Part shown: in pieces, positions 2,314 to 28,249 of the stretch
Layout of the letters: every line of letters starts with the position of its first letter
How positions within the stretch are numbered: position 1 is the first letter of the stretch
From: Synechococcus sp. A15-24
GTDB lineage: Bacteria > Cyanobacteriota > Cyanobacteriia > PCC-6307 > Cyanobiaceae
Direction: 5' to 3'
Length of the DNA stretch: 32,000 nucleotides
Assembly (NCBI RefSeq): GCF_014280195.1
Contig: NZ_CP047960.1
Coordinates: 1,980,001 to 2,012,000 of the forward strand
Translations under genes and position numbers: made by a program
The notes under the pieces: model-generated
Seen by the model: only the letters and a program-made list of their open reading frames with translations
Told to the model about the DNA's origin: nothing
The model's database searches: none

Positions 2314-2348
2314 GCGGCCTAACCTCCCGCCAATCCGAGCCGCCAGCG

Positions 2349-8892: not shown

Positions 8893-9161
8893 GTGCGTTC
8901 TCGGAACCGACCTGGAAACGCTGGCTGGATCGGCTGCTGATGCTCAACGTGCTCGTGGTGATCCTCGGCGCCGGCTTCTTCGGGGTGGCCGTCGCGGCCC
9001 AGACCCAGGGCCGCAGCGCACCGATGGATCTGTTTCAAGCCCTCTGGCAGCCGCTGTTCACCCCAGCCATCAGCCTGCTGATCATGGCGGCCCTGCTCAG
9101 TGGAATTCTCAGCTGGTGGCAGCGGCGAGTGCTGAAGACAGGTCGGGATAGCGGAAGCTGA
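8889..9161 (+). CDS. small two-TM membrane protein
   Basis: The ATG at 8889 overlaps the upstream stop (ATGA). MSAFSEPTWKRWLDRLLMLNVLVVILGAGFFGVAVAA... contains two hydrophobic helices. The 3' end overlaps the convergent gene by 53 nt. Confidence 0.55.
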   Translation: MSAFSEPTWKRWLDRLLMLNVLVVILGAGFFGVAVAAQTQGRSAPMDLFQALWQPLFTPAISLLIMAALLSGILSWWQRRVLKTGRDSGS

Positions 9162-10151: not shown

Positions 10152-10406
10152 ATGGCCGAAACCGACAGCAAGGCCCCCGCCAAGGCCAAACCGGCGGCCC
10201 TGCGCAAGGGCGCCCTGGTGAAAGTGAACCGTGCGGCTTACAACGCCAGCCTTGAGGCGGCCGCCAGCGACCCCATAGCACCGGACTACATCTTTGAAGG
10301 TCCTGGGGAGCTGCTGCTGGTGAAAGGGGACTACGGCCAGGTGCGTTGGAACCGGCCCGTGCCGGATGTCTGGCTGCGGATGGATCAGTTGGAATCCTGC
10401 GGCTGA
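10152..10406 (+). CDS. ndhO: NAD(P)H-quinone oxidoreductase (NDH-1) subunit O
   Basis: [25 protein letters not shown]...[36 protein letters not shown] is the NdhO signature. The ATG is at 10152. Confidence 0.85.
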
Positions 10407-13125: not shown

Positions 13126-14094
13126 TCACAGCATCGGGTCCTGACGTGCCGGCGAGGACGCGACTCCACTGAACATCGGCGTGGACAGATACCGCTCGCC
13201 ATAACTGGCCAGCATCACCAGCACACGCCGCCCCTGCCACTCGGAGCGTTGACCAAGCCGCAGAGCCGCAGCAACGGCGGCACCGCTGCTGACGCCGCAA
13301 AGCAGACCCTCCTGCCGCGCCAGACGACGGCCCACATCCATCGCCTCCTCATCCGACACGGTCATCACCTCATCGATCAGATCACGCTCCAGCACAGCAG
13401 GGACGAATCCTGCACCGATGCCCTGAATGCGATGCGCACCAGGCGGCCTGCCCGAAAGCACAGCACTACCCGCCGGCTCCACTGCCACCACCTGCAGTTG
13501 AGGATTGCGCTGCTTCAGCAAACGGGCACAGCCTGTGATGGTGCCGCCGGTGCCGACGCCAGCCACCAGAGCGTCCAGCTGACCGTCGCAGTCGTTCCAG
13601 ATCTCCTCAGCGGTGGTGCGTTCATGCACCGCAGGATTGGCCGGATTGTCGAACTGCTGCAGCAGATAAGCCTCCGGGATCTCCTTCACCAACTCAGTGG
13701 CGAGGGCAATGGCTCCGGCCATGCCCTGTGCACCGTCGGTGAGCTGCAGCTCAGCCCCGTAGGCACGCAGCATCGAACGGCGTTCCGTGCTCATCGTGTC
13801 TGGCATGGTGAGGATGAGCCGGTAGCCCCGGGCAGCCGCGACCATGGCCAGCGCAATGCCGGTGTTGCCGCTGGTGGGCTCCACCAGCACCGTTCGCCCC
13901 GGCTGAATCGTTCCCTCCTGCTCCGCCGCCAGCACCATGGCGCTGGCGATGCGATCCTTCACCGATGCTGAGGGGTTGAAGCTTTCCAACTTGGCGATCA
14001 CTTCTGCCCCACAGCCGAACCGCAACGGCAGGCGGTTGAGACGAACCAGGGGTGTGCCTCCGATCAGGCCGGTGATATCGGAGGCAATGGCCAT
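13126..14094 (-). CDS. cysK: cysteine synthase A (O-acetylserine sulfhydrylase)
   Basis: [11 protein letters not shown]...[14 protein letters not shown] (PLP lysine motif), [12 protein letters not shown] and [10 protein letters not shown]. Confidence 0.95.
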
Positions 14095-14104
14095 GGCTGC
14101 TGAA

Positions 14105-16090
14105 TCAGAACCGGAAGACCGACTGAATCAAACCACCAAAGATGCCGAAGGTCGATGCACCGTTCTGATCCTGATCACCGCTGAGGTTGGCGGTGTAATG
14201 ACCCAGAGGACGTGACATCCAGAACACCGATGGCGTGATCTGAATGTTGTCAGTTACTTGGAAGGAGGCATAGAGCTCCACGAGGTAATTGGCATCATTC
14301 GGGGTATGTCCACCGGCAAGTTCAGTCGCGAAGTTGGGCATACCGAAGCCGACACCAAGGTCGTTGCCGACATCGAAGACGTCATCCCATTTGAGGCCGA
14401 CAAACCAGGATTGGCTGGCCACAGGGGAGTACTTGAAGAATCCCGAACCCGTGATGGCACTGCGGGCATAGCCGACAGACACGGAGGGGATCCAGCCGGT
14501 CTCCTGGGGGACCCAGTACCCGTTCAGAGCGAAGTTGTGGCTGTTGCGCTCACTGCGTTCAGCGATGTAATCACCTTGATAAAGATCTTCTTCCGTCCAG
14601 TTCCAGACATCACGCCAGCATTCGTTATTGAATGAATCATCCATCATGAAATTGGTTCCACGGCGCTGGCCAGTGCCGCACTGGCCGTAGCGATACGCGA
14701 AGGCGACACCGTATTCCTCGCCTCCCCAACCAGCCTGGACCAGGAAATTACCGCGGGAGTTGTTGGTGAACATGCCGCCAAGCACCGGATCACCATCACC
14801 ACCATCCTCAGCCACATAGTTCATCGAAACCGAGAATGCTGGATCTCCCTTGTTTTCAGTCTTCTCCTTATAAATCACACCAAACATCGCACCTGTGGCT
14901 TTGTTATAGACATTCGGCACACCCGCCAATCCGGTCCAATCAAGGATGCGGGCTCCGCCACGGTTATAGGCCGAGGGCCACATCCCCAAGCTCTCGGTGT
15001 TTCTCGCCATTGGACCAACGATGAAGATCAGCGAGTGATCGATAAGTTCGTCATTCTTCAGAGGGAAGCGATAATACAAACGCCCTAAACCAAGAATATC
15101 GTCCGTACAAGGAGCGGTGCTGAGTTTTGTCAGAGGCACACCGTCGCCTGCAAAGGCGTTGTCGCAGAAGTTGCCTGCTGTGAAACTTGCGTAGAGGAGA
15201 TCCTTTCCGGTGAATGAGGTCTTCAGGTTCAGCTTCTGCTCATAGTTGAAGGTGAAGGCCCCGTACTGACTGTTGTAGGCGCGGATACCACCTCCTGTGG
15301 CATCCTTTTTCCAGGATTTGTGATCTCGGAACTTACGAGACCGGATGTCTTTGTAGTGCTTCTCGAGCTTGGTGCCTTTGATGATCTCTGTACCGCGTTT
15401 GCCGTCTTTTTCCTTCAGCGAACCATCGCGGTTGTGAACGGAACGCCAGGCTTCACGGGTTTTCTGCCAGGAGCGACTGTTCTGCGTGGAGCCAAGGGGT
15501 GATTCACGACCATCAATTTCAACGATCTGGTGCTTCTTGTCGTAATCCCAGTAGTACTTAGAACCATCATTGGTGCCATAGGCCTTGGTGGAACCCATGG
15601 TGAAGGTGCTCTTGCCCTTCAACTTGGTGGTGGTTGAAAACTGACTGGCTTCGAGGGATCCAACGCGGTCCTCCAGCAGCATGATGCTGCCCGCCACGAA
15701 GTTGAGTTCAGATTCAAATTCCTTCAGCAGCTGCTCCACCTCTTCGGTCATCTCTGTGACACGATCAAGGCAGGAGGCCAACAATGCCGCCGCTTCATAA
15801 CGCGTGATCGGGATGTAGCCGCGGAAGCGGCCGTTGGGGTAGCCAGCCACACATCCATAGGTTTTTACCAACCTCACCAGGGCCTGATAGGCCCAGTCCG
15901 TGGGGTATACATCATTGAACTGATTAACACTGGTGACCTGCTGGAGCAGTTGCTTGGCTTGTTCAAGATCGAGGGTAGCAGAGTAATCCGAAACCGAGTC
16001 AATGTTGAGGTCGGCAGCTTGTGCCGAAAGGGGAGCAATCAAAAACGTCAGTGCTGCTGGAGCGACCAAAAGGTGCTGGAGCAGTTTCAT
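14105..16090 (-). CDS. SLH-domain / OprB-type outer-membrane porin, long paralogue (G1, 661 aa)
   Basis: The ATG at 16090 gives the signal peptide [25 protein letters not shown]. It is followed by an SLH motif [14 protein letters not shown]...YPNGRFRG...TRYEAAALL, a coiled coil, [11 protein letters not shown], a beta-barrel and a C-terminal ...SVFRF. The stop lies only 10 nt from the cysK ATG. Confidence 0.9.
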
Positions 16091-16292
16091 ACCAATCCCC
16101 TCAACTTCCTGCAGGAAGCATTTCAACAACAAACTGAAGGTACCGAACGTGGGGTGTGGTGCTAGTCCATTAACCCACCGTTAAACACAATAAAAAAGCC
16201 CCCCTGATAGGGGGGCTGATCTGTGTGAGGAACAAGTCTGAAAACCCGACCGAAGTCGGGCCGTTGAATCAGAACTTGAAGACGGTCTGAAC
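16001..16292. repeat. duplicated block: G1 head + G1 5' UTR/promoter + Yfr1-like module + last 24 nt of G2
   Basis: It aligns along its full length with 18044..18334. Identity is roughly 85-90% by eye, rising to near identity over the last ~110 nt. Confidence 0.85.
16192..16260 (-). ncRNA. Yfr1-like RNA module / double terminator in porin G2 3' UTR (copy A)
   Basis: The minus strand reads CCCGAC-UUCG-GUCGGG + UUUUCAG, then unpaired ACUUGUUCCUCACACAGAUCA, then GCCCCCC-UAUCA-GGGGGGC + U6. The second hairpin is a clear rho-independent terminator. The ncRNA interpretation rests on resemblance to the Yfr1 architecture. Confidence 0.5.
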
Positions 16293-17774
16293 GACGCCAC
16301 CCCACTGGGACGCATCATCCACACCCTGAGACTGCTCAGGAAGGTAGAAGACTGCAGGAATGACTGAGATTTTGTCAGCCACCTTCAGCTTGAGGGAAGC
16401 TTCGATAGCAAGTTCAGGGGCATCAGGGTCATCGCCCTTTTGAGAGACAACGTACTGGGGGGCACCGAATCCGACAGCAAGCTTATGGCTTGACTTTGCC
16501 AGCTTGTCCCACTGGAAACCAACCATCCAGCTAGCAAGTTCTTCAACGTCAGAACCCTCAAGGGAGGAGAATCCATAACCAGCGCTGATTGAAGGAATCA
16601 GACCAGTCTCAGAAGGCTTCCAGAAACCATTGAGAGCAAAGTTATTGGAGTAGACATCAGTGCCCTTAGCGCAACTTTGCTCCTTAAAGAAGCCAGTTCC
16701 GAAACCTGCTTTGCACTGACCGTAGCGATAGCCGAAGGCAACACCCCACTTTTTAGATCCGTAGCCAATCTGGGCAGTCGTATTAGCACGTGAGTTGGAG
16801 CCGAACATGCCACCCGCGGTGGGATCGCTGTTCTCTGCTTCTCCAGCATCGGCGACATAGTTCACGGCAACAGTGAACTTAGGGTCCCCTTTAGCTACCT
16901 TCTGCTTCCAGATCAAGCCAACCAAACCGCCGGTTTCCTTGTTGTAGACACCAGGTGTGCCCCAGTGACCACCAAACATATTGAGGGTCTTCACTTTGTA
17001 AGCCGTGGGCTTCATACCCAAGCTTTCAGTATTCCGAGCCAGAGGGCCTACAATCGCGGTCAGGCCTTTTGCAACAGGGAAGCGATAGTAGAGACGATCA
17101 ACTTCCATGACGTTTCCAGACATTCCGGAAACATCCAACTTGCGCAATCCACCGGAGAAAGCAGACCCATCCTTCATGTTGCCACCGCGCAGGCGGGTGA
17201 AGAGAAGATCCTTACCAGTGAAAGAAGTCTTCAGACCAAGACGCAAGTCATAAGAGAAACTCAAGGCGTCATAGACAGATTTGTCTGCGTCAGCCTCAGA
17301 ATTAATGGCACCTGTAACGAAGGTAGCCTTACCTTTAAGCTTGGTGGTGGTGGAAAACTGAGTGGCTTCCAGTTCGCCAACGCGAGCTTCCAGACCGTCC
17401 ACTCGGCCGCGGATCACAGCCAGCTCGGTTTCGAATTCTTTGATCAGACGACGCAGCTGGTCGGTCACCTCGGTGATGCGGTCGAGGCAAGCGTTCAGCA
17501 GGGCAGCCGCTTCATAGCGGGTCATGGCCCGGTTGCCACTGAAGGTGCCGTTGGGATAACCGGCGACGCAGCCGTAACGCTCGATCAGGTTGGCGAGTGC
17601 CTGGTAGGCCCAGTCAGTCGGGTAGACGTCGGAGAACTGGGTGATGCTGGTGACCTGCTCTTCGGATGCCGAGTAGTCGGACACACCGTTGATGTTCAGG
17701 TCTGCGGCGTTGGCGCCGGAGGCCAGGAGGCCTAGGGCGGCAGGCGCTACCAGCAGTTGCTGGAAGAGTTTCAT
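16269..17774 (-). CDS. SLH-domain / OprB-type outer-membrane porin (Som-like, G2, 501 aa)
   Basis: The ATG at 17774 gives [23 protein letters not shown]. It has an SLH motif [47 protein letters not shown], a coiled coil, a barrel and a C-terminal VVQTVFKF. Confidence 0.92.
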   Translation of the reverse strand: MKLFQQLLVAPAALGLLASGANAADLNINGVSDYSASEEQVTSITQFSDVYPTDWAYQALANLIERYGCVAGYPNGTFSGNRAMTRYEAAALLNACLDRITEVTDQLRRLIKEFETELAVIRGRVDGLEARVGELEATQFSTTTKLKGKATFVTGAINSEADADKSVYDALSFSYDLRLGLKTSFTGKDLLFTRLRGGNMKDGSAFSGGLRKLDVSGMSGNVMEVDRLYYRFPVAKGLTAIVGPLARNTESLGMKPTAYKVKTLNMFGGHWGTPGVYNKETGGLVGLIWKQKVAKGDPKFTVAVNYVADAGEAENSDPTAGGMFGSNSRANTTAQIGYGSKKWGVAFGYRYGQCKAGFGTGFFKEQSCAKGTDVYSNNFALNGFWKPSETGLIPSISAGYGFSSLEGSDVEELASWMVGFQWDKLAKSSHKLAVGFGAPQYVVSQKGDDPDAPELAIEASLKLKVADKISVIPAVFYLPEQSQGVDDASQWGGVVQTVFKF

Positions 17775-17817
17775 GAGATTCCTCACACCAAAATTGAGGG
17801 AAGTGGACAGAGAGTCC
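17338..17817. repeat. near-identical porin 5' module, copy 1 (5' UTR + signal peptide + SLH + coiled coil of G2)
   Basis: Aligned by eye to 19505..19976, I count 4 substitutions and one 8-nt indel over ~480 nt. Confidence 0.9.
17779..17788 (-). promoter_or_regulatory. SD-region site GUGUGAGGAA in G2 5' UTR, complementary to the Yfr1-type CCUCACAC motif
   Basis: The mRNA reads GGUGUGAGGAAUCUC-AUG. This is an exact 10-nt reverse complement of UUCCUCACAC at 16223..16232 and 18266..18275. Confidence 0.5.
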
Positions 17818-17884
17818 ACCAGAAAAATACTGGTGAAGGAAAAGTCTGCACAGGAGGCCGCACTGTTATGTGTCCATTACTACG

Positions 17885-17911
17885 CCTTAACCAGTTTAAG
17901 CTTAGGTTAAA
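17885..17911 (-). promoter_or_regulatory. phased TTAA-core direct repeats (Pho-box-like) upstream of G2, next to the conserved TAGTAATGGACAC element
   Basis: The minus strand reads TTTAACCT-aag-CTTAAACT-gg-TTAAGGCG-TAGTAAT. The first two TTAA cores are 11 nt apart. The same layout is found upstream of the G4 pseudogene. Confidence 0.3.
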
Positions 17912-17940
17912 TAATTAGGTTGAAGGTTGTTAGCCAAAGA

Positions 17941-17966
17941 CAACCCAGCTCACAAAAGGTGGGTTG
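17941..17966 (-). terminator. degenerate terminator hairpin after the porin remnant
   Basis: CAACCCA-(12 nt)-TGGGTTG, positionally homologous to the strong terminator at 20093..20120. It lacks a proper U-tract. Confidence 0.35.
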
Positions 17967-18002
17967 AGGAAGAAAGCACAAGTAGAGATTCTTCGTTGCT
18001 AA

Positions 18003-18132
18003 TTAGAAAATGAAGTTGGACTTCACATAAGCACCGTCAACATAATGTTGAGATCCGCAGCTTGTGCTATTTGAGACCAATCAAAAATGTCAGGGCTGCC
18101 GGTGCGACCAAAAGGTCCTGGAGAAGTTTCAT
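18003..18132 (-). pseudogene. chimeric porin remnant: G1-like 5' head (promoter, UTR, signal peptide) fused to G5-like last ~13 codons
   Basis: The ATG at 18132 gives [21 protein letters not shown] (TAG at 18067). The 3' part, in another frame, reads YVDGAYVKSNFIF* (TAA at 18003), compared with DYVQGAYVKTTFTF* in G5. The junction at ~18044-18046 is an AAT microhomology. Confidence 0.8.
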
Positions 18133-18334
18133 ACCCATCCCCTCAAATTCCTGCAGGAAGCATTACAACAACAAACTGAAGGCACCGAACTTGGGGAGTT
18201 GTGCTTGACCCCATTAACCCATTACTAAACACAATAAAAAAGCCCCCCTGACGGGGGGCTGATCTGTGTGAGGAACAAGTCTGAAAACCCGACCGAAGTC
18301 GGGTTATGAATCAGAACTTGAAGACGGTCTGAAC
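18044..18334. repeat. duplicated block, second copy (remnant head + Yfr1-like module + last 24 nt of G4)
   Basis: See 16001..16292. Confidence 0.85.
18236..18305 (-). ncRNA. Yfr1-like RNA module / double terminator in porin G4 3' UTR (copy B)
   Basis: The minus strand reads AACCCGAC-UUCG-GUCGGGUU + UUCAG, then unpaired ACUUGUUCCUCACACAGAUCA, then GCCCCCC-GUCA-GGGGGGC + U6. It is nearly identical to copy A. Confidence 0.5.
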
Positions 18335-19933
18335 TACACCGCCGAACACACCAACGGACTTGTCGTCGGGAGTCTCGAATCCGTAAGGACGAGAAAGCCA
18401 GTAAATTGCAGGGGTTACAGCAATTTTGTTGGTGACCTGGAACTTGTACCAGAGCTCCATGGCATAGTTGCCATCGGCAACAAAATCACTTTCGCCTTTG
18501 CGATCAATCTTAGTCACGAACCGTGGCTGACCAATAGCAGCTCCAAGGGCGTTCTTCTTCTGGAAAACATCATTCCAAGTAAGACCCACCATCCAAGAGG
18601 CCATCTCACGGATTTCGGTCGCATCCTCCCAGTCATCGTTGCCGTTGCTGTAGGAAGCACCAACACCCGCACTAATGGAAGGAATCATGCCTGATTCCTC
18701 AGGGCGCCAGAGGCATGGAGTGACCAGTTGTGGCTATAGGCATCAGAACGAACTTCTTTGCCGTCTTTATTTTCAACGGTGCAAGAAGTGTCGCCCTTAC
18801 CAGCGAACTCTGTACCAGTACGGAATTTAGCTCCGCACTGTCCGTAGCGATAACCAGCGGCAAGGCCCCATCTCTTGGTTCCGTAGGCAATCTGGCTGGT
18901 GATGTTCGCTTCGGAGTTATCGGTCATGAAGCCACCCGAATTGGGGTTGCTATCTTCACCCTCTCCGGAGTCAGCAATGTAGTTAGCGGCAAGAGTCCAG
19001 TAAGGATTGCCCTTTCCGGCGCTCTTCTTGTTGGTGTAGATCAGACCGAAGCCGCTGCCAGTTTCCTTGTTCCAGACGCCGGGGGTTCCCAGAGAACCAC
19101 CGAAGAAGTCGAGAACCTTCTGGCCACCCTTGGCATAAGCACTGGCCTTGTAGCCCATCATTTCGGTGTTGCGGGTCAGAGCACCGATCTGAGCCTTAAA
19201 TCCGCTGCCCAGGGGAAATCGATAGTACAAACGATCAATCTCAACAGCGTTGCCGCCAGGAGCACCAGTGTCAAGCTTGTTCAAGCCAACACCGTTGCCA
19301 TCCCAAACCGAGGCATCGCCCTGGTTGCCGACACGGAGGCGAGTGAAGAGCAAATCCTTACCAGTGAAGGACGTCTTCAGACCCAGGCGCAGGTCATAAC
19401 TGAAGGTGAAAGCGCCGTACTCAGCGTTGTAGTCATCCCTCATATTGCCAGGGTTATCACCAAGAGCTTTGGTGGCACCCATGACGAAATTCGCCTTGCC
19501 TTTCAGCTTGGTGGTGGTGGAGAACTGAGTGGCTTCCAGTTCGCCAACGCGAGCTTCCAGACCGTCCACGCGGCCGCGGATCACAGCCAGCTCGGTTTCG
19601 AATTCTTTGATCAGACGACGCAGCTGGTCGGTCACCTCGGTGATGCGGTCGAGGCAAGCGTTCAGCAGGGCAGCCGCTTCATAGCGGGTCATGGCCCGGT
19701 TGCCACTGAAGGTGCCGTTGGGGTAACCGGCGACGCAGCCGTAACGCTCGATCAGGTTGGCGAGTGCCTGGTAGGCCCAGTCAGTCGGGTAGACGTCGGA
19801 GAACTGGGTGATGCTGGTGACCTGCTCTTCGGATGCCGAGTAGTCGGACACACCGTTGATGTTCAGGTCTGCGGCGTTGGCGCCGGAGGCCTAGGGCGGC
19901 AGGCGCTACCAGCAGTTGCTGTAAGAGTTTCAT
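18311..19933 (-). pseudogene. SLH/OprB porin pseudogene (G4): two frameshifts
   Basis: The ATG at 19933 is followed by an 8-nt deletion at ~19890 relative to G2 (ccggaggccaggaggcctagg versus ccggaggcctagg). This shifts the frame inside the signal peptide. A second, 1-nt deletion at ~18710 splits the barrel into ORFs 18685..19851 and 18311..18688. The repaired reading is ...SLHA(F)WRPEESGMIPSISAG. Confidence 0.8.
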
Positions 19934-19976
19934 GAGATTCCTCACACCAAAATTGAGGGAAGTGGACAGAGAGTCC
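19505..19976. repeat. near-identical porin 5' module, copy 2 (G4 pseudogene)
   Basis: See 17338..17817. Confidence 0.9.
19938..19947 (-). promoter_or_regulatory. SD-region site GUGUGAGGAA in G4 5' UTR (same as G2)
   Basis: Identical to the G2 site and lying within the near-identical 5' module. Confidence 0.45.
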
Positions 19977-20043
19977 CTAAAAAAGATACTGGTGAAGCAA
20001 AAGCATCCACAAGGGTCCGCACAATTTTGTGTCCATTACTACA

Positions 20044-20071
20044 CTTTGAACAATTTAAAGCAAGTTTAAAG
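20044..20071 (-). promoter_or_regulatory. phased TTAA-core direct repeats (Pho-box-like) upstream of G4
   Basis: The minus strand reads CTTTAAAC-ttg-CTTTAAAT-tg-TTCAAAGT-g-TAGTAATGGACAC. The two TTAA cores are 11 nt apart. Confidence 0.3.
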
Positions 20072-20092
20072 GCCAGAGTGGCAGTTAAAGGC

Positions 20093-20120
20093 AAAAAAAA
20101 CCCACCTCATAAGAGGTGGG
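20093..20120 (-). terminator. rho-independent terminator of porin G5
   Basis: The minus strand reads CCCACCUC-UUAU-GAGGUGGG followed by U8. Confidence 0.85.
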
Positions 20121-20159
20121 TCGGAAAAGAAAGAACAAGTGGAGGTTCTTCGTTGGCGA

Positions 20160-21611
20160 TCAGAAGGTAAATGTGGTCTTCACGTAAGCACCTTGGACGT
20201 AATCACTTGAAAGATCGCCGGAATACTCATCAATGATGAAGTAAGTCGGCGTGACGGTGATGTTGTCGGTAACGGCAAACTTATAGAAGATTTCCCACAT
20301 CATGTTGTAGTCGTCTTCGATTTTAGGAGCCTGACCGATGGCTGTGCCGAATGAGTTACCTTCAATGCCGACATCAGACCACTCAAAACCGGCGTACCAG
20401 CTGGTGATCTCTTCGTCTGAATCGTCAGGGTTAGACAATGAGTAACCACCACTCACAGAAGGAATGATACCTGAATCTGCAGGTGCCCATGCTGCAGCAA
20501 TGCTGAAGCCATGACGGCTGTCACCAGCTTCAGCAGCTGCCTTGTTGGTGCCGATGGTCAGGCCAACATTTTGCGCGTAGGCATAACCAACTTGAGCCAA
20601 GAAGCTACCTTCAGCGATTTCACCTTCATAGAAAAGCTGCCAAGAAGATGTCGAACCGGTTTCAGCACGGCCAATGCCCGTACTGCTTCCATCCCATGCG
20701 ACGTAGTTGCCGCTGAGTTTGAAACCAGAGTCTCCAAGCGTATAAATACCACCCAAGCCGGCGCCGGTGCTAGCCAGGTTGTTGGTTGCCCAGGCACCGC
20801 CATAGGTGAAGAAGTCCAGCAGCAGGTCGGAGGGGTAGAAGGTTGCATAGCCGGCGTACATACCAGGGTCATCCGTCCTCACCACAGGACCAGCTGTCAC
20901 CGTCAGGTTCTCACCAACAGGGAAGGTGTAGAACAAGCGACCTATTTTGACGGTGTTACCGGAGGACATGGCGGTCTCAACAAAGGTGAGACCTTCATCC
21001 CAGACGGAGGGACCGAAGTTACCGGAACGCAGAACGGTCGTCAGCATGTCCTTACCCGTGAAGGACGTTTTCAGGGCAAGACGAAGGTCGTAGTTGAAGG
21101 TGAGTGCCTCACCCTCATCATCGTCGAAACCTTCAGCAGCACCAAAGACCCAAGCGGAGTAACCCTTCAGCTTGGTGGTGGTGGAGAACTGGGTCGCTTC
21201 AAGTTTGCCGACGCGAGCCTCGAGACCGTCGACTTTGCCGGCGATCATTGCGAGTTCTTTCTCGAACTCAGAAATAAGACTCTTGAGTTGATCGGTCACC
21301 TCGGTGACGCGATCGAGGCAGGCATTCAGCAGGGCAGCCGCTTCGTAGCGGGTCATGGCCCGGCCACCACGGAAGGTGCCGTTGGGGTAGCCGGCCACGC
21401 AGCCGTACTGATCCACCAGGTTGCTCAGAGCCTGGTAAGCCCAGTCGGTGGGATAAACGTCAGAAAACTGGGTGACGCTGGTGACCTGATCCTTCTTGGA
21501 AGAAGAGGAGTACTCAGCAACACCATTGATGTTGAGCTCGGTGGCATTGGCACCGGTGGCCAGAAGGCCAAGGGCGGCTGGAGCCACCAGCAATTGCTGG
21601 AAAAGCTTCAT
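20160..21611 (-). CDS. SLH-domain / OprB-type outer-membrane porin (Som-like, G5, 483 aa)
   Basis: It has a signal peptide [23 protein letters not shown], an SLH motif [47 protein letters not shown], a coiled coil, a barrel and a C-terminal YVKTTFTF. Confidence 0.92.
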   Translation of the reverse strand: MKLFQQLLVAPAALGLLATGANATELNINGVAEYSSSSKKDQVTSVTQFSDVYPTDWAYQALSNLVDQYGCVAGYPNGTFRGGRAMTRYEAAALLNACLDRVTEVTDQLKSLISEFEKELAMIAGKVDGLEARVGKLEATQFSTTTKLKGYSAWVFGAAEGFDDDEGEALTFNYDLRLALKTSFTGKDMLTTVLRSGNFGPSVWDEGLTFVETAMSSGNTVKIGRLFYTFPVGENLTVTAGPVVRTDDPGMYAGYATFYPSDLLLDFFTYGGAWATNNLASTGAGLGGIYTLGDSGFKLSGNYVAWDGSSTGIGRAETGSTSSWQLFYEGEIAEGSFLAQVGYAYAQNVGLTIGTNKAAAEAGDSRHGFSIAAAWAPADSGIIPSVSGGYSLSNPDDSDEEITSWYAGFEWSDVGIEGNSFGTAIGQAPKIEDDYNMMWEIFYKFAVTDNITVTPTYFIIDEYSGDLSSDYVQGAYVKTTFTF

Positions 21612-21617
21612 GGGGGA

Positions 21618-21629
21618 TCCTCACACAGA
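21618..21629 (-). promoter_or_regulatory. SD-region site UCUGUGUGAGGA in G5 5' UTR, complementary to the Yfr1-like core
   Basis: The mRNA reads UCUGUGUGAGGAUCCCCC-AUG. This is a 12-nt exact reverse complement of UCCUCACACAGA in both Yfr1-like modules. Confidence 0.5.
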
Positions 21630-21816
21630 ACATGGGCGCAACAGCGCCACCTAGATCTCATAGGGCTTTACCAAGCTTTAACCAAGCAATCCTGTGCCAG
21701 CTCCCTCAATGACTAGTAACAGGTGTCACAGAAAACGCCTAAAAGCGTTTGCTACGAACATAAAATTGATTCATGTGGGCAACCACCCACAGTGGGGACG
21801 GCTCCTTGTGCGCTCC

Positions 21817-23421
21817 ATGTCCTCTCGGGTCCTGCGCGTCGCCATTCTCTTTGCAGCCGTCCTGCTGGCGCTGCAGGCCTGGCGGTCCTGGGTGCTCCTG
21901 GCCAGTTACGACCAGGGAATCTTTCAGCAAGTGCTATGGAACTCTCTCCAGGGTCATCCGTTTGAAAGCACCCTCTCCTCGCAGCTCTCCACCAATGTGA
22001 TCCACGCCGGGGAGCTGCCCTCGGTCGACTACGAGCGGCTTGGTCAGCATTTCACCCCCACTCTCCTGCTCTGGACACCCCTTCTGGGGCTGATCGGAGG
22101 TGCCGCCCTGCCGCTGGTGCAGGTGGGACTGATCACGGCGGCTGGCCTCACATTGCATCGACTGGCCTTGGGTCTGCTGCCGGAACGCACTGCCAACTGG
22201 CTCACCTACGGCTTCTTTGCAGGTAATGCCCTTATCGGCCCCACGCTCGGGAACTACACCGACCTCTGCCAGCTGCCCCTGGCCGTGTTTGTCCTGATGC
22301 TCGGCCTGGTGGAACGTCGCCGCTGGTGGATCACTGGGGCAGCCCTATGGATCCCTTTGATCCGCGAGGACACCGGTGTGCTGCTGGTGGCCATCGGTCT
22401 GTGGCTGCTGCTGCGGCAACGGCAGCGCTGGCCGTTGGCCATGACCTTGATCGCCTGGGGTGGTGGCTGGGTGGTGATCTGCACCAACCTGCTGATGCCG
22501 CTGTTCTCCGACGACAACGCCAAGCGGTTCATGGTGGAGAACTTCGGACAGTATCTGGGGGACGAGAACAGCAGCTCAAGCCTCGGGATCGTGGGCCACG
22601 CCCTGCGCCAGCCCCTGCTGCTGCTTCAGCAATTGGTGGATCCGCCGGGTCAAACCCTGCTGTATCTGCTCGGCCACGGCCTGCCCTTTCTGTTTGTCCC
22701 TGTCATCAGCCTCGACACCTGGCTGCTGGCGGGCCCCAGTCTGCTCGGGCTGTTTCTGGCCCAGGGGGCCAACGACCCCCTCTCGATCACCATCCGCTAC
22801 ACGCTGCTGGTGGTGCCGGGATTCGCCCTTGGCGCTCTGTTCTGGTGGCAGCGTCGGCCAAAATCCAACCCTGGAGCGCGAACCCGTCTGGCCTGGGGAG
22901 CTGCTCTCAGCCTGTCTCTGCTGCTGACGGTCAGCAGCAACCCCCACCGCAGCCTGTCCTTTCTGATCCCGGACAGCATTGATCCCTGGGTGTACAGCGC
23001 CCCATGGCGTCAGTGGCACCATGGCGCCGCCGCTCGCCAGGCCCTGTCCGTCATCCCCGCCGATGGCACCGTGGCCGCCAATACACCCCTGGTGCCGCTG
23101 CTCGCCAGACGCGCCGTGCTCGTGCGTTTCCCATTCGCCACGGGCTATCTGGATCGATCCGGATCTCCCCAGCAGGTGGACTGGATCGCCGTGGATCTCG
23201 AGCAGCTCGAGCAATACGGGGTTGCTTTCAGAGGCGACTGGAAACAGCTGCGCAACGCTCGCCGCTGGCTGGCGGCCCATCGCGACAGCAATCGGGTGCA
23301 GGCCATCAACAGTGGTGTGGTGGTGCTGCAGCGCAATGGCGTTCAGCATCCCAACCTTGAAGCCGCCCTCGATCGACAGCTGGATCGACCACTCCCTGCC
23401 GACCCCCGCCGGCGCTCCTGA
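21817..23421 (+). CDS. DUF2079-family polytopic membrane protein (paralogue 1)
   Basis: The ATG at 21817 is followed by TM1 and then SYDQGIFQQVLWNSLQGHPFESTLSSQLSTNVIHAGELPSVDYERLGQHFTP. The protein has many TM helices and a soluble C-terminal ~130 aa. It is a close paralogue of 26560..28188. The family name is from memory. Confidence 0.7.
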   Translation: MSSRVLRVAILFAAVLLALQAWRSWVLLASYDQGIFQQVLWNSLQGHPFESTLSSQLSTNVIHAGELPSVDYERLGQHFTPTLLLWTPLLGLIGGAALPLVQVGLITAAGLTLHRLALGLLPERTANWLTYGFFAGNALIGPTLGNYTDLCQLPLAVFVLMLGLVERRRWWITGAALWIPLIREDTGVLLVAIGLWLLLRQRQRWPLAMTLIAWGGGWVVICTNLLMPLFSDDNAKRFMVENFGQYLGDENSSSSLGIVGHALRQPLLLLQQLVDPPGQTLLYLLGHGLPFLFVPVISLDTWLLAGPSLLGLFLAQGANDPLSITIRYTLLVVPGFALGALFWWQRRPKSNPGARTRLAWGAALSLSLLLTVSSNPHRSLSFLIPDSIDPWVYSAPWRQWHHGAAARQALSVIPADGTVAANTPLVPLLARRAVLVRFPFATGYLDRSGSPQQVDWIAVDLEQLEQYGVAFRGDWKQLRNARRWLAAHRDSNRVQAINSGVVVLQRNGVQHPNLEAALDRQLDRPLPADPRRRS

Positions 23422-23697
23422 TCAAAACGATGCCCCCGATCGGAAGACCGACCGGGGGCTCTCGCCGAGTCCGCTTGTGCCGCGGAACCGGATGATCAGT
23501 TAGAGGGCGCCGTTCAGCCGGCGTTCTCCGCGATCAGCAGACCCTGCATGAAAGAACTGGATTGCATGGACACCTCCTCCTGAAAGGGTTGATGAGCGCC
23601 GGTGATGCATTCGGTGGTGTCCAGGACCCGAAGGTCCGAAGATGCCACCACACCACTGCGGTCGGGACTCTTGAACCCTAACGGAGGTGTCAAAACT

Positions 23698-25194
23698 TTG
23701 GCGAAGCTGCTGGATCAGCGGCGCTGGCTGATGCCACTGCTGCTGTGGCTGCTCACGCTGCTGCTCTGGCTGCCGGGTCTGGGCAACCTGCCGCTGCGCG
23801 ACTGGGATGAAGGGCGCGTGGCCACGGTGGCCCGCTCCAGCTCCAGCCTGCTGCCGATGAAATGGCAGCAGCCTTACCTCAACAAACCCCCCGGTCTTCA
23901 CGCCCCCATGGGCCAGTTGATCCGTGCCCACGGAGAGCAGGACGCCCTGGTGCGACTGCTGCCGGCCATGCTCTCCACCCTGGCGGTCCCCCTGATCGTG
24001 CTGATGCGCAGGGAGCTCGGTGGTTCCGACCGGCAACGCAGGGCCCTGCTGGCGGGGGTGGTGTTGATGACCCTGCTGCCCATGGCCCGTCACGGCCGGC
24101 TGGCGATGTTGGACGGCACGTTGGTGAGTTGCAGCCTGCTGTTGTGGTGGAGCTGGATCCGAGCCCGTCAGCATCCCCTGGTTGCTCTAAGCGCAGGGAT
24201 CGCCAGCAGTGGCGTGTTGCTGCTGAAACCACCGGCACTGCTGGGGTTGGGCCTGATCGCCCTGGTTGTGGGCGGCCGCAACAGCTGGCCGCGCTGGCGC
24301 GGCTGGATCGGCCTCAGCCTGGGACTGCTGCCCGGGCTGAGCTGGCATCTCTGGCACTGGAGTGTGCGCGGCGACGATGCGCTGCTGATGTGGGGCGGCC
24401 AGGGACTGGCCCGGATCACCAGCAGCGTCGGCGATGGCCACGGTTGGTGGACCCCATGGGTGGAGGTGCTAGAGGGTGGTTGGCCCTGGCTGCTGCTGCT
24501 GCCCATCGGTCTGTCCTGGGCCTGGCGGCAACGCCATGTCACCGCCGGGCGCTGGGAACTGGGGCTGCTCATCGGCAGTGCTGCCCTGGTGCTGCCGCTC
24601 CGCACCCAGTTGCCCTGGTACAGCCACCTGCTCTGGCCGCCTCTGGCCCTGCTCTGCGCCGAAGGGCTGGCTCAACTGCTCGACTCCGGAACGCCTCGCT
24701 GGGTGGGCCGGTGCTGGCAGGCCCTCGGCCTTGGACTGAGCCTGGCTGGATTGGGCACGCTGGTGATCCGCGAGCCAGAACTGCCGAGCCTCAGCCTGCT
24801 GCTGGCGGGGTTCGGGCTGTTGGCTGGAGGCCAAGCCATCAGTCATCCCCAGCCCCAGCGGCGACGACGCGGGCTGGCGATCCTGGTGATCGCCTGGGGC
24901 CTGGCGCTGCTTGCGCTCTGGCACAGCCGCCTCTGGCTATGGGAGCTGAATGAAAGCTGGGATCCACGGCCTGTGGCCGCTCAGGTACGGGCGCTGCCGG
25001 CCGATGCGTCCGTTTGGCTGAAGGGGCCCACTCGGCCATCCCTCGGCTGGTATGGGGGCCGAAACCTGCTGCAGTACCGCAAGAGTGAGCCACCCAAGGG
25101 GCCCTACTGGCTGGTGAGCAACAAGCCGATGCCGGGCTGCCTGCCGAGCCAGGACCCGGCCAGCGGTGAGTGGCAGCTATGGAAATGCGAATGA
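23698..25194 (+). CDS. GT-C glycosyltransferase, family 39 / ArnT-PMT-like
   Basis: LLWLPGLGNLPLRDWDEGRVATVAR places a DE motif in the first outward loop, followed by YLNKPPGLHAPMG and ~11 TM helices. The ORF is open from 23602. Likely starts are TTG at 23698 (GGAGG 10 nt upstream) or ATG at 23731. Confidence 0.72.
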   Translation: MAKLLDQRRWLMPLLLWLLTLLLWLPGLGNLPLRDWDEGRVATVARSSSSLLPMKWQQPYLNKPPGLHAPMGQLIRAHGEQDALVRLLPAMLSTLAVPLIVLMRRELGGSDRQRRALLAGVVLMTLLPMARHGRLAMLDGTLVSCSLLLWWSWIRARQHPLVALSAGIASSGVLLLKPPALLGLGLIALVVGGRNSWPRWRGWIGLSLGLLPGLSWHLWHWSVRGDDALLMWGGQGLARITSSVGDGHGWWTPWVEVLEGGWPWLLLLPIGLSWAWRQRHVTAGRWELGLLIGSAALVLPLRTQLPWYSHLLWPPLALLCAEGLAQLLDSGTPRWVGRCWQALGLGLSLAGLGTLVIREPELPSLSLLLAGFGLLAGGQAISHPQPQRRRRGLAILVIAWGLALLALWHSRLWLWELNESWDPRPVAAQVRALPADASVWLKGPTRPSLGWYGGRNLLQYRKSEPPKGPYWLVSNKPMPGCLPSQDPASGEWQLWKCE

Positions 25195-26597
25195 AACCAC
25201 CCCGCCAGCTCTGGGGTCTTGCCGTCGGTCTGGGGCTGATTGGCTGGGGCTGCAGCGCCATGCGGCATGGCCTGCTGCACAGCAACGCCTACGACCTGGG
25301 CCTGTTTGACCAGTGGGTCTGGCTGATCAGCCAGGGGCTGCCACCAATCTCCTCGATGGAGCACGTTCACGTGCTGGCGGATCACGGTGCCTGGCTGCTG
25401 TATGGCACCGGTCTGCTCTACAAGCTGTTCCCATCGGTGCAGTGGCTGCTGGCGGCCCAAGCCCTGGCCCTGAGTCTCACGGCCATCCCGATCTGGTGGC
25501 TGGCGCAGCAGGCTGGCGTCTCCAGACAGGGCTGCTGGCTGGCATGCGGACTGTGGTGGCTGCAGCCCGTCGTCTTCAACGCTCTGCTGTTCGATGTGCA
25601 CCCGGAAACGTGGGTGATGCCCGCCTTCGCCTGGGCCCTCTGGGCCGAACGGGCGGAACGCCCACGCCTGTGGTTAGCCCTGCTGCTGGTGATGCTGGGG
25701 GCCCGTGATGGGCTGGTGCTGGTACTCGGCGGCATGGGGCTCGATCTGGCATGGCGCCAGCGCTGGCGATGGAGTGCCGCCGTCAGCGGGCTGGCAGCGA
25801 GCTGGTTGCTGCTGCTGAGTCGGTGGCTCTATCCCTGGCTGCGCGATGGCGAAGGCCCCAAGGCCGCCGCTCGCATGTTCAGTCATCTCAGCGGCGGGCC
25901 GATGCAGATCCTGCAGAGCCTCGACTGGAGCGGAGGCCTTCAGTACCTGGTGCTGCTCTGCCTGCCCTGCATCTGGCTCTGGCGACGGCGATCACTGCCG
26001 ACCCTGCTGATCGCCCTTCCCCTGGTGCTGGTCAATCTGCTGTCGGCCTCCGCCAGCTACCGCACCTTGGTGCATCACTACAGCCTTCCCCTGGCGCTGG
26101 TCGCCGTGCTGGCGGCCATTGATGGAGGGTTGGCAGCTGACCGACCCCGCCATCGACTTCCCAGGAGCCTGATCTGGGCAGCAGCCTGCTGGCTGGCCCT
26201 GGCCAAACCCTTGTTCTTCACAGGGCCCTACCTGCAGCGGCTGCCGCACCTGCACTCAGCTCAGGAAGCCCTGGCCAAGGTGCATCCGAACGACGCGGTG
26301 CTCACCACGAGCTACCTGGTGCCTCACCTCAGCCAGCGCCGCCGGATCGCCTTCCCCAAAGCCGCCTTCAACAGTGAACTCAGCGACCAAACCTGGACGG
26401 TGCTGCTGCTGAACCCTATCGACCCTGGCTGGGGTTCCACCAGAAAGGTGCAACGGCGGCTGATCGATCAGGCTGAACGCCAGGACTGGCACTGCCGGGA
26501 TTGGCCCTCGGGCCTGACACTCTGCAGATCATCGGAACCTGAGCACTCTGAACGACTCCATGGCCTCGCTTCAGACCCCAGACCCCCGTTCAGCTGA
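25191..26597 (+). CDS. DUF2079-family polytopic membrane protein (paralogue 2, divergent)
   Basis: AYDLGLFDQWVWLISQGLPPISSMEHVHVLADHGAWLLYGTGLLYKLFP is the classic DUF2079 N-terminus as I remember it. The ATG at 25191 overlaps the GT39 stop (ATGA). Alternative starts are at 25170, 25179 and 25185. Confidence 0.7.
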   Translation: MKPPRQLWGLAVGLGLIGWGCSAMRHGLLHSNAYDLGLFDQWVWLISQGLPPISSMEHVHVLADHGAWLLYGTGLLYKLFPSVQWLLAAQALALSLTAIPIWWLAQQAGVSRQGCWLACGLWWLQPVVFNALLFDVHPETWVMPAFAWALWAERAERPRLWLALLLVMLGARDGLVLVLGGMGLDLAWRQRWRWSAAVSGLAASWLLLLSRWLYPWLRDGEGPKAAARMFSHLSGGPMQILQSLDWSGGLQYLVLLCLPCIWLWRRRSLPTLLIALPLVLVNLLSASASYRTLVHHYSLPLALVAVLAAIDGGLAADRPRHRLPRSLIWAAACWLALAKPLFFTGPYLQRLPHLHSAQEALAKVHPNDAVLTTSYLVPHLSQRRRIAFPKAAFNSELSDQTWTVLLLNPIDPGWGSTRKVQRRLIDQAERQDWHCRDWPSGLTLCRSSEPEHSERLHGLASDPRPPFS

Positions 26598-28188
26598 GTC
26601 TGCGCAGCAGCGTGTCCGTCTGGCCGCAGCACTGTTCCTGCTGATCGGCTGCGCCTTGCAGTGGTGGCGTATGCAATCCCTCACAGCCTCCATGGACCAG
26701 GGCATCCTGATGCAGGTGCTCTGGAACGGCCTGCGGGGGCACCCCTTCGAGAGCACGCTCTCGTCGCAGCTGTCCACCAACGTGATCCACAGCGATGAGC
26801 TGCCCGCCCTCGGTTACCACCGGCTCGGGCAGCACTTCACCCCAATCCTGGCGTTATGGATTCCGCTGGTGGGGCTGCTGGGGAAATGGGCCCTTCCGAT
26901 GCTGCAGGTGGTGCTGATCACCGCTGCTGGGCTGGTGCTGCACCGGTTGGCGCAACGGCAGCTCAAGCCCGACCTGGCGGCCCTGGTCACCATCGCGTTT
27001 TACGGCGCAAATGCGGTGATCGCGCCCTGCATGCTCAGCAACTTCACCGATCTCAGTCAGCTGCCGTTGTGCGTGTTTCTGCTGCTGCTGGGGCTGGAGC
27101 GCCAGCAGCGCTGGCTCACATGGGCAGCCGCTCTTTCCATTCCCCTGATTCGGGAGGACACCGGCGTTGTGCTGATGGGAGTTGGGATCTGGCTGGGTCT
27201 GCGCCGTAGGGGGCGCTGGCCGATGGCCGTGACGTTGATCCTGTTCGGTGGCGGATGGGTGGCCCTGTCCACCAACGTTCTGATGCCGTTGTTCAGCGCA
27301 GACAACGCCCAACGGTTCATGGTGGAGAACTTCGGGCAATACCTGGAAGGCCGCGACCAGGCCAGCAGCCTGGAGGTGCTTGGGCTAGTGCTGCGCCAGC
27401 CTCTGGTTCTGCTGCGCGAACTGGTGTCGCCACCGGGCAACACCATCACCTACCTACTGGCCCAGGGCTTACCGCTGATCCTGGTGCCCTTCATCTCGAT
27501 CGACAGCTGGCTGCTGATGGGGCTGCCACTGCTGGGGTTGCTCCTGGCCCAGGGCTTCAACAATCCGCTGTCCATCAGCATCCGATACACCTTTCTGGTG
27601 GTGCCGGGGCTGTTCGCTGGAGCCGTGCTCTGGTGGCGCAGCCGTCAGGGGCTGTTCGAATCTCGCCGCCTGCGCCGGATCTGGGCTGGCGCCATCGCCC
27701 TGTCCTGTTTGTTCACTGTGACGGCCAATCCAAACCAGAGCTTGTCCTGGATGATTCCAGACAGCATCCAACCCTGGATCTACCGGGATCCCGTGGCCCA
27801 GTTCCGCCATGGCCAGCGGGCCCTTGCTTTGATCCAGACCATTCCAGACAACAGCAGTGTTGCGGCCACCACGGGCCTGATCCCCCACCTGGCCAATCGT
27901 GAAGTCCTGATCCGCTTTCCGTACCACGACCGTTATCAGAATCAGGATGGCCAACCCGTTCCGGTGGAGTGGGTTGCGGCCGATCTCCACAACCAGCGCC
28001 TGTTTCAGACGTTTCGAAAACAGCGCAAGGGTCTGAAGCGCAATCTCCGCCAGCTCAATGAGCTGTCGGATCAGGGGTATGGCGTTGTTGCCTTCGACGA
28101 TGACGTCGTCCTGCTGCAACGACAGGCCCAAACTGATGCAGTGGCACAACAGGCGTTCAATGCACTCTTTAGATCTTTAAATTTCTGA
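26560..28188 (+). CDS. DUF2079-family polytopic membrane protein (paralogue 3)
   Basis: SMDQGILMQVLWNGLRGHPFESTLSSQLSTNVIHSDELPALGYHRLGQHFTP. It overlaps the previous gene by 38 nt and is collinear with paralogue 1 along its whole length. Confidence 0.72.
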   Translation: MASLQTPDPRSAESAQQRVRLAAALFLLIGCALQWWRMQSLTASMDQGILMQVLWNGLRGHPFESTLSSQLSTNVIHSDELPALGYHRLGQHFTPILALWIPLVGLLGKWALPMLQVVLITAAGLVLHRLAQRQLKPDLAALVTIAFYGANAVIAPCMLSNFTDLSQLPLCVFLLLLGLERQQRWLTWAAALSIPLIREDTGVVLMGVGIWLGLRRRGRWPMAVTLILFGGGWVALSTNVLMPLFSADNAQRFMVENFGQYLEGRDQASSLEVLGLVLRQPLVLLRELVSPPGNTITYLLAQGLPLILVPFISIDSWLLMGLPLLGLLLAQGFNNPLSISIRYTFLVVPGLFAGAVLWWRSRQGLFESRRLRRIWAGAIALSCLFTVTANPNQSLSWMIPDSIQPWIYRDPVAQFRHGQRALALIQTIPDNSSVAATTGLIPHLANREVLIRFPYHDRYQNQDGQPVPVEWVAADLHNQRLFQTFRKQRKGLKRNLRQLNELSDQGYGVVAFDDDVVLLQRQAQTDAVAQQAFNALFRSLNF

Positions 28189-28202: not shown

Positions 28203-28228
28203 ACAAAAAAGCCCCCCTTTCGGGGGGC
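28203..28228 (-). terminator. rho-independent terminator of psbD
   Basis: The minus strand reads GCCCCCC-GAAA-GGGGGGC followed by UUUUUUGUU. There is no U-tract on the plus-strand side. Confidence 0.85.
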
Positions 28229-28249
28229 TAATAACGATCACATTCTAGA

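Follow-up and report, generated by a model that had tools for sequence, protein, structure and literature searches.

A cluster of DUF2079 and ArnT/PMT-like genes in marine Synechococcus as a candidate GT-C envelope glycosylation locus

In Gtr-type systems, a family 2 glycosyltransferase (GT2) makes a polyprenyl-phosphate sugar, GtrA aids its flipping and a glycosyltransferase of the GT-C type transfers the sugar in the periplasm. Such systems comprise GtrA, GtrB and a serotype-specific GT-C enzyme in the O-antigen glucosylation of Shigella and Salmonella, and CsbB, GtcA and YfhO in Firmicutes. Related lipid A and core modules combine a GT2, a YdjC-type deacetylase and an ArnT-like GT-C enzyme, as in LgmABC of Bordetella and FlmF2/NaxD/FlmK of Francisella, which add amino sugars to lipid A. 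In Rhizobium, RgtE and RgtA-D are galacturonic acid (GalA) transferases and ArnT-like GT-C enzymes transfer GalA to lipid A or core, and in other bacteria lipid A receives GalA or amino sugars from ArnT-like enzymes. Here we describe a gene cluster in a window of 32,000 nucleotides (nt) of Synechococcus sp. A15-24, i.e. the whole stretch that was analyzed (NZ_CP047960.1, positions 1,980,001-2,012,000, forward strand). It consists of four long open reading frames (ORFs), all listed on the plus strand from 21.8 to 28.2 kb (Table 1), namely the DUF2079 paralogues 1, 2 and 3, which we refer to as D1, D2 and D3, and an ArnT/PMT-like gene between D1 and D2, which we refer to as GT39. We consider it likely that these genes encode GT-C transferases, which move polyprenyl-phosphate (Pol-P)-linked sugar units to an envelope glycan. 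A GT-C envelope glycosylation module had been proposed in an original prediction made from the sequence, and this interpretation is now supported computationally by fold, an invariant Asp, synteny and donor genes.

All three paralogues matched the Pfam family PF09852 (DUF2079) over profile positions 1-459 and above the gathering score of 28.2 bits (D1, E=1e-136, 457 bits; D2, E=1.6e-100, 338 bits; D3, E=3e-128, 429 bits), and the ORF list and Pfam agree on three DUF2079 genes and one ArnT/PMT-like gene in a single orientation. No NCBIfam model matched D1, D2 or D3. The closest homologues of the cluster proteins belong to marine Synechococcus, and a search of 1.84 billion representatives with a profile built from the three paralogues gave 4800 clusters at 50% identity (E<=1e-3). 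We take DUF2079 to be a member of the Pfam GT-C clan CL0111. That the family lacks an experimentally defined function, as the original prediction had stated, agrees with the literature under DUF2079, PF09852 and COG3463, which gave nothing on function.

The most direct evidence comes from predicted structures. AlphaFold2 models were obtained for D1 (pLDDT 94.3, pTM 0.93) and D2 (pLDDT 93.4, pTM 0.92), and in Foldseek comparisons with the Protein Data Bank (PDB) the top 25 matches of D1 and the top 30 matches of D2 were all GT-C enzymes. The matches of D1 included STT3, ALG9, ArnT, PglB, AftA, AglB, Pmt4 and PimE, and those of D2 included ALG12, DPY19, ArnT, STT3/PglB, Pmt4/Pmt1-2, PIG-M, ALG6, ALG3 and a GPI-transamidase subunit. 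Foldseek probabilities were at least 0.8 with the exception of two D2 matches (ALG3, 0.54; GPI-transamidase chain, 0.57), compared to 0.11 or less for unrelated membrane proteins. Since the TM-scores were modest (about 0.4-0.55 overall; TMq against ArnT 0.55 for D2 and 0.48 for D1), the likeness is one of fold class rather than of close homology. From these results we conclude that D1, D2 and D3 are predicted inner-membrane proteins with a GT-C glycosyltransferase fold.

Among the enzymes with solved structures, ArnT (CAZy GT83) and PMT (GT39) share the polytopic fold with D1 and D2, and ArnT (5f15) was among the best structural matches of both. Like the enzymes of the cluster, ArnT and PMT have an acidic residue after the first transmembrane segment (TM1) and a periplasmic C-terminal domain; they differ in that DUF2079 shows no detectable profile-level kinship to the GT39-like family or to solved GT-C chains. 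The best Foldseek E-values of D2 were obtained for ALG12 (GT22) and DPY19 (3e-4 each), and that of ALG9 (GT22) was among the best for D1 (6e-5). These are eukaryotic enzymes, which use dolichyl-phosphate mannose, and their identity to D1 and D2 is 9-13% at TM-scores of about 0.4-0.5, with different C-terminal domains.

The acidic motifs directly after TM1 of each paralogue (Table 1) and the motif LRDWDEGR of GT39 were all found in the translations. In an alignment of 71 full-length diverse DUF2079 members and the three window proteins, the post-TM1 Asp (D32 in D1) was present in each of the 72 sequences with a residue at this position, 5-8 residues past TM1, as would be expected if it were invariant across the wider family. 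In addition, H78, Q102, P228, P266, Y328 and R432 were kept in 95-99% of the alignment, and in a separate alignment of 58 DUF2079 sequences the post-TM1 Asp was the sole invariant column.

The GT39 protein matched PF02366 (PMT) with 31.6 bits (cut-off 22.7) over profile positions 84-195 of 245 and, weakly, PMT_2. The DE motif of GT-C enzymes, which had been noticed in its first loop, is indeed present, and R66, D67, D69 and E70, which include the D-E pair, are invariant in 22 relatives. Further family-invariant motifs are LPLRDWDE, YLNKPPGLH, ARHGRLAMLDG, LLLKPP and TQLPWYSH, and relatives are named "glycosyltransferase family 39 / ArnT family" in the sources. Against the ArnT equivalog model PRK13279 (NCBIfam), GT39 scored 16.3 bits (E=0.003), with 567 bits being needed, and neither the GT39 sequence nor a GT39 profile found an ArnT or a PMT in the PDB by sequence. 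GT39 is therefore ArnT-like by its motifs (KPP, DE) and not an ArnT orthologue, and represents a divergent ArnT/PMT-like GT-C enzyme.

We then compared the locus with those of relatives, using the D2 orthologue group alignment as query and the best 80 of 308 D2 relatives in species-representative genomes. All 80 D2 loci are picocyanobacterial (Synechococcus, Cyanobium, Vulcanococcus, low-light and high-light Prochlorococcus, Candidatus Synechococcus spongiarum). When the DUF2079 ORFs from all loci were clustered at 48% identity, four subfamilies resulted, i.e. the D2 type (81 members), the D4 type (38), the D1/D3 type (26) and the D5 type (6); D4 is usually encoded on the minus strand right after D2 and is missing from this window. 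The site is constant, lying between porin genes and the psbD/ABC/response regulator genes, and its contents vary over at least six arrangements. In Synechococcus, the porin gene is followed by D1, GT39 and D2 (type A), by GT39', a GT2-GtrA fusion gene, a PMT_2 gene and D2 (type B) or by GT39 and D2 (type C), in each case with D4 on the minus strand thereafter. Low-light Prochlorococcus has GT39', GT2-GtrA, PMT_2, D4, D2 and optionally D3 (type D), Cyanobium and Vulcanococcus have GT39-TPR (TPR, tetratricopeptide repeat), optionally D3 and, further on, D2 (type E), and high-light Prochlorococcus and Candidatus S. spongiarum have D2 without other GT-C genes nearby (type F).

The window corresponds to type A, with D3 on the plus strand in place of the minus-strand D4 of its relatives. 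The expectation of synteny beyond this strain held: in Synechococcus, Cyanobium/Vulcanococcus and low-light Prochlorococcus, DUF2079 and ArnT/PMT-like genes stand side by side at this very site of the chromosome, and in most loci of Synechococcus, Cyanobium and low-light Prochlorococcus the gene directly upstream of D2 encodes an ArnT/PMT-like GT-C enzyme, whereas the exact order D1-GT39-D2-D3 occurs in none of the 80 species-representative loci. According to BLASTP, GT39 is orthologous to GT39' (45% identity) and shows no relationship with either the PMT_2 gene or GT39-TPR, from which it follows that up to three ArnT/PMT-like families and four DUF2079 subfamilies meet in this hot spot. We conclude that the four-gene arrangement is lineage-specific and lies within a plastic, clade-variable GT-C hot spot, in which the D2 type alone is universal among the loci.

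Given that gene content at the site differs by clade and that a gene on the opposite strand separates D1 from the other three, the four genes might be mere neighbours in a variable region, which share neither a pathway nor an acceptor. However, the TGA of GT39 (25192-25194) is overlapped by the ATG of D2 in the sequence ATGA and D2 and D3 overlap by 38 nt, as had been described and is borne out by the coordinates. Moreover, the frequent position of an ArnT/PMT-like gene directly upstream of D2 and the composition of all locus variants, which consist of GT-C genes and Pol-P-sugar synthase genes, argue against chance proximity, so that we regard this explanation as very improbable and favor a functional link between the GT-C genes.

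The neighbours of D2 in relatives also bear on the sugar donor. In Prochlorococcus marinus MIT 9201 (locus L063, 9008-11732), a GT2 gene (314 amino acids; PF00535, 2.6e-33) is followed 10 nt on by the D2 orthologue and directly thereafter, on the opposite strand, by a GtrA gene (121 amino acids; PF04138, 5.9e-21). Among the gene contexts, it is this triad that hints most clearly at what DUF2079 does. The same GT2-D2-GtrA triad occurs in L067, L068 and L071, and in L057 a GT2 gene lies directly upstream of D2. In type B and D loci (e.g. L008), the GT2 within the cluster is fused to a GtrA/DPMS transmembrane domain, and this fusion gene stands, together with a PMT_2 gene, between GT39' and D2 in about 20 loci of Synechococcus and low-light Prochlorococcus. 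GtrA, GtrB and GT-C components are thus found together in relatives, either as the triad or in the loci with the fusion. More distant DUF2079 genes adjoin GT2, methyltransferase, PTPS_related, GT9 and GT4 genes. By analogy, the suggested use of polyprenyl-phosphate-sugar donors is backed by these GtrB-like GT2 and GtrA genes beside or inside the cluster in relatives.

Compared to the Gtr systems, the likeness is closest where the D2 orthologue occupies the GT-C slot between a GT2 of about 310 and a GtrA of about 120 amino acids, and it extends to the type B and D loci, where D2 lies downstream of the GT2-GtrA fusion gene. The window differs, having neither GtrA nor GtrB and several stacked GT-C genes of different families; moreover, Gtr systems are phage-borne, whereas the D2 locus is chromosomal and conserved across picocyanobacteria. 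A likeness to the Lgm and Flm modules is seen in Vulcanococcus sp. (L047, 7719-11377), in which a GT2 gene and a minus-strand gene for a YdjC-like putative deacetylase (about 8657-9500) are located directly before D2; no YdjC gene was present among the window ORFs scanned. Beside the DUF2079 triad of L063, a locus of a high-light Prochlorococcus, two ORFs (13919-16166) have a prepilin-type methylation motif at the N-terminus as well as a C-type lectin domain and are pilin-like lectins.

The donor genes are also relevant for a reading in which DUF2079 proteins have a GT-C architecture but act as Wzy/WaaL-like polymerases or ligases, or bind or flip lipid-linked glycans. D2 has a weak match to Wzy_C (O-antigen ligase; E=0.0019), a weak Wzt_C-like glycan-binding domain occurs in one relative, and the activity of the family is not known. 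Yet Wzy_C was matched by one of 58 members as opposed to six of 58 for PMT_2, the structural matches are all transferases with Pol-P or polyprenyl-diphosphate donors, and the GtrB and GtrA neighbours indicate a Pol-P-monosaccharide donor. We therefore assign this reading a low probability and prefer a transferase function. PMT_2 was the lone recurrent second Pfam family in DUF2079 proteins, its matches remaining below the threshold (best E=1.7e-4).

The three paralogues are not equivalent. D1 and D3 are close duplicates, as had been noticed (54% identity), and D1 and D2 share 27%; the view of D2 as the divergent copy was not upheld, since it is D2 that corresponds to the family consensus, with H26, D35-L-G, Y77, P126, D135-x-H137, H379 and essentially every conserved column. 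Its conserved residues comprise D35, H65, Q90, D135-x-H137-P-E139, R172-D173 and R383. D1 and D3 depart from the consensus at seven conserved columns where D2 conforms. By the comparison of sequences, D2 is the family-typical, pan-picocyanobacterial core member, and D1 and D3 are derived forms. Neither is a soluble C-terminal domain limited to paralogues 1 and 3, as had been assumed: an alpha/beta C-terminal domain with the nearly invariant arginine of P-H-L-S-x-R is present in all three. Conserved C-terminal Cys pairs (C435/C445 in the D2 group, C513/C529 in the GT39 group) fit a periplasmic location of these domains.

D1 orthologues (66-87% identity) are located upstream of GT39 in 13 Synechococcus loci. 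Close orthologues of D3 (80-97%) were found in metagenomes only; the next nearest proteins are those of Cyanobium-type strains (about 69%) and of low-light Prochlorococcus (54-58%). Since D1 and D3 lack several consensus residues, inactive or altered catalysis is possible, and it could be that catalysis is confined to D2 and the ArnT-like enzyme, with D1 and D3 being degenerate partners, specificity subunits or genes in the process of being lost. The replacement of H24, L33, Y90, P137, D146-F-H148 and L180, as well as the differences in presence, number and orientation of D1 and D3 among strains, are in line with this possibility. However, both proteins retain the invariant Asp, H78, Q102, P228, P266, Y328 and R432, their ORFs are intact and full-length with the orthologues mentioned above, and an Asp (D149 in D1) persists three residues beyond the lost one (NYTD at 146-149 of D1, NFTD at 161-164 of D3). 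We consider a degenerate role of D1 and D3 rather unlikely and favor the view that all four proteins are GT-C transferases.

Several observations weigh against an assignment of the cluster to GT-C-dependent glycosylation. Sequence searches of the PDB chains with the DUF2079 profile and with D1 returned no meaningful match, and the expected profile link to GT-C enzymes failed to appear when the DUF2079 profile was aligned with that of the neighbouring GT39-like family (hhalign probability 1.6%), so that the assignment builds on the fold and the recurrent sub-threshold PMT_2 matches. D35 would correspond to the catalytic Asp of ArnT or PglB by its position, and a crude hydropathy parity check of the topology overlooked several helices. 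The consensus D-F-H (80-93% of the family), in a loop which we read as the second periplasmic one, is changed to N-Y/F-T in D1 and D3, and both proteins could be inactive. Furthermore, no GtrA or GtrB homologue is encoded in the 32-kb window, which means that the donor synthase must be encoded elsewhere in the strain, and the literature retrieved under the three family names contains no activity, donor or acceptor for any DUF2079 protein. Nevertheless, the models would make DUF2079 a new, uncharacterised family of a known kind, i.e. predicted GT-C transferases in Gtr-like systems.

In the mechanism that we propose, a GtrB-like GT2 would make the donor on the cytoplasmic face and a GtrA-type protein would help to flip it across the membrane, after which each GT-C enzyme would take one sugar from polyprenyl-phosphate-sugar at the periplasmic face and transfer it onto an envelope glycan. 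Catalysis or metal binding would fall to the invariant Asp with which the first periplasmic loop starts, as it does in ArnT, PglB and PMT, and D-x-H-P-E of D2 (residues 134-140) may provide a second polar motif, which we read as lying in the next periplasmic loop. D2 would be the core enzyme, translationally coupled to the ArnT-like gene, while D1 and D3 would probably add lineage-specific decorations; the paralogues may thus have distinct specificities, as had been suggested.

As a first guess by analogy, the acceptor may be lipopolysaccharide (LPS), either its lipid A or a glucan core free of 3-deoxy-D-manno-oct-2-ulosonic acid (Kdo), and a cell-wall or peptidoglycan-linked polymer or the porins are possible as well. 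According to a passage of PMC4515613, which cites Snyder et al. 2009, the lipid A of marine Synechococcus is free of phosphate and contains one GalA instead, and Kdo is replaced by an alpha-1,4-glucose chain, a composition which adds to the likeness to the Lgm, Flm and Rgt systems. A literature search on ArnT and cyanophage resistance in Synechococcus yielded nothing useful.

Table 1 Features of the DUF2079/ArnT-like locus and of its surroundings in the window.
Feature	Position	Strand	Description	Basis
GT2-TPR gene	2244-3551		glycan gene	
LpxB-like match	7723-8892		glycan gene, weak match	
GT39-TPR gene	10385-12430		glycan gene	
Porin array	14105-21611	-	four SLH-OprB porin genes	
Intergenic region between D1 and last porin gene	21612..21816		divergent; porin (-) start 21611, D1 (+)	
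D1	21817..23421	+	DUF2079, 534 amino acids, D1/D3 subfamily; predicted GT-C fold; post-TM1 motif SYDQGIF (D32)	
Conserved structured RNA or small mRNA	23424..23690	-	about 265 nt	profile, covariation, folding
Terminator of the RNA	23432..23459	-	G+C-rich hairpin, then AUCGUUUU	terminator scan; helix 8
17-codon ORF	23514..23567	-	MQSSSFMQGLLIAENAG and stop; inside the RNA	
GT39	ORF opens 23602, ends 25194	+	ArnT/PMT-like GT-C gene	
D2	ATG 25191..26597	+	DUF2079, 468 amino acids, family-typical subfamily; post-TM1 motif AYDLGLF	
D3	ATG 26560..28188	+	DUF2079, 542 amino acids, D1/D3 subfamily; post-TM1 motif SMDQGIL	
G+C-rich hairpin	28210..28229		with T-runs; between D3 stop and psbD (-) 3' end	terminator scan

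The four genes had been thought to be translationally coupled after a gap of 180-280 nt. The start/stop overlaps are in line with coupling of the last three genes, whereas the gap between D1 and GT39 is not empty and contains an RNA gene on the minus strand. The DNA of this gap is near-invariant in 14 genomes, in which the flanking proteins are only 51-87% identical, and a 32-mer of the RNA is exact in 39 loci, with perfect identity from Cyanobium to low-light Prochlorococcus. An nhmmer profile detected one full-length copy in each of 60 loci as well as in the window, and the orientation of the copy is in every case opposite to that of D2; these loci belong to Synechococcus, Cyanobium/Vulcanococcus and low-light Prochlorococcus, and the profile search found no copy in the loci of high-light Prochlorococcus or Candidatus S. 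spongiarum.

Read from 23690 to 23424, the RNA consists of a long hairpin at the 5' end, in which compensatory changes are numerous, the unpaired Shine-Dalgarno sequence GGAGGAGGTG, the 17-codon ORF, helices of the ORF and the 3' untranslated region (3'UTR), and a terminator, the hairpin of which lies 11 nt past the D1 stop codon. In 58 of the 60 copies, the 17-codon frame is retained together with its Shine-Dalgarno sequence and begins with ATG or GTG; it follows the pattern M-x-x-S-x-x-x-Q/K-G-x-x-I-A-E-N/K/Y-A-x, in which S4, G9, E14 and A16 are conserved. In three helices, the second half of the ORF pairs with the 3'UTR, and divergent copies contribute further compensatory changes in these helices. 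For 20 sequences, 97.2% of the cells were paired and 94 cells showed double changes, compared to 28 +/- 4.6 in shuffled and 11-24 in slid controls; the folding z-score of the window copy is -4.78. In a single-sequence fold, the 5' end ACACCUCC (23682-23690) pairs with the Shine-Dalgarno sequence (23573-23582). Since this pairing is kept only in close relatives and not conserved beyond them, we did not adopt it, and it may be lineage-specific or due to chance.

The RNA did not reach the gathering score of any of the 4227 covariance models of Rfam 15, and at E<=10 only terminator-like fragments were matched. A tmRNA or tRNA remnant was rejected because ARAGORN found nothing there, and a phage origin was rejected after 0 matches in viral contigs. 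Yfr6 and Downstream-peptide (type 2 glutamine riboswitch) are small-ORF RNAs of marine picocyanobacteria (PMC1242208, PMC2864571), and the RNA in the gap resembles these and leader-peptide attenuators in its length of about 250 nt, its structured 5' part, its very short conserved ORF and its terminator. It differs in its peptide, which is not DUF4278-like (PMC6212724), and in being a single copy at a constant locus, and the Downstream-peptide and glnA aptamers (RF01704, RF01739) were unmatched even at E<=10. Yfr6, compared by description, has a 33-codon ORF of the DUF4278 family and is restricted to MED4 and SS120 (PMC1242208, PMC6212724); we therefore rejected this candidate too.

The RNA affects the annotation of its neighbours. 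About 30 N-terminal codons of the GT39 ORF (EDATTPLRSGLLNPNGG; 23602-23697) are the 5' hairpin of the minus-strand RNA read on the opposite strand, which explains their conservation, and from this we conclude that the true start of GT39 is probably TTG at 23698 or ATG at 23731, upstream of the conserved RRWL-P-LLLW. The D1 start (ATG at 21817) coincides with that of most homologues (about 534-550 amino acids). Since a minus-strand gene lies between D1 and GT39, D1 very likely forms a separate transcription unit and is, as judged from the sequence, probably not co-transcribed with GT39-D2-D3; the latter would be one translationally coupled unit, from which the convergent, independently terminated small RNA gene splits off D1. 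In type B and C loci, the RNA is located directly upstream of a porin gene in the same orientation, a position that would suit a leader or attenuator role; the copies of Cyanobium and low-light Prochlorococcus are convergent with D2.

A more far-reaching combination of these observations would place D2 as the GT-C enzyme of a Gtr-like housekeeping step on an outer-membrane glycolipid, e.g. by making or attaching the Kdo-less glucose or GalA decoration of lipid A in the periplasm, with D1, D3, D4, D5 and the ArnT-like genes diversifying the surface and the RNA acting as a translation-sensing regulator of envelope or porin genes. We regard this combination as speculative and, taken as a whole, doubtful.

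With respect to the surroundings, the cluster is divergent from the array of SLH-OprB porin genes, and the window indeed holds further glycan genes, i.e. GT39-TPR, GT2-TPR and a weak LpxB-like match (Table 1), as the original prediction had described. A scan of the intergenic region between D1 and the last porin gene revealed no match to the sigma-70 consensus. The third porin gene appears to be split into two parts in different frames with an overlap of 4 nt (18685-19851 with SLH and part of OprB, and 18311-18688); the split (18311-19851) may represent a frameshift, a pseudogene or a sequencing error. Downstream of the cluster follow psbD, an ABC ATPase gene, tRNA-Asn and a response regulator gene. 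The strong hairpin behind D3 is taken as the terminator of psbD and could stop transcription coming from either side, D3 and psbD being convergent.

Picocyanobacteria dominate ocean photosynthesis, and their cell surface governs phage adsorption, grazing and nutrient uptake, yet few enzymes have been assigned to the synthesis of their unusual LPS, which lacks Kdo and phosphate, and of their other surface glycans. The assignment proposed here will not surprise glycobiologists but is useful, because the GT-C fold, the invariant Asp of the first loop and the GtrA/GtrB partners give DUF2079 a testable function. The least expected item of the locus is the structured RNA, which represents a concrete new target for picocyanobacterial RNA biology. 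Finally, the D2 type is marked out as a putative pan-picocyanobacterial core enzyme, and the clade-variable GT-C hot spot around it is a natural candidate for surface diversification.

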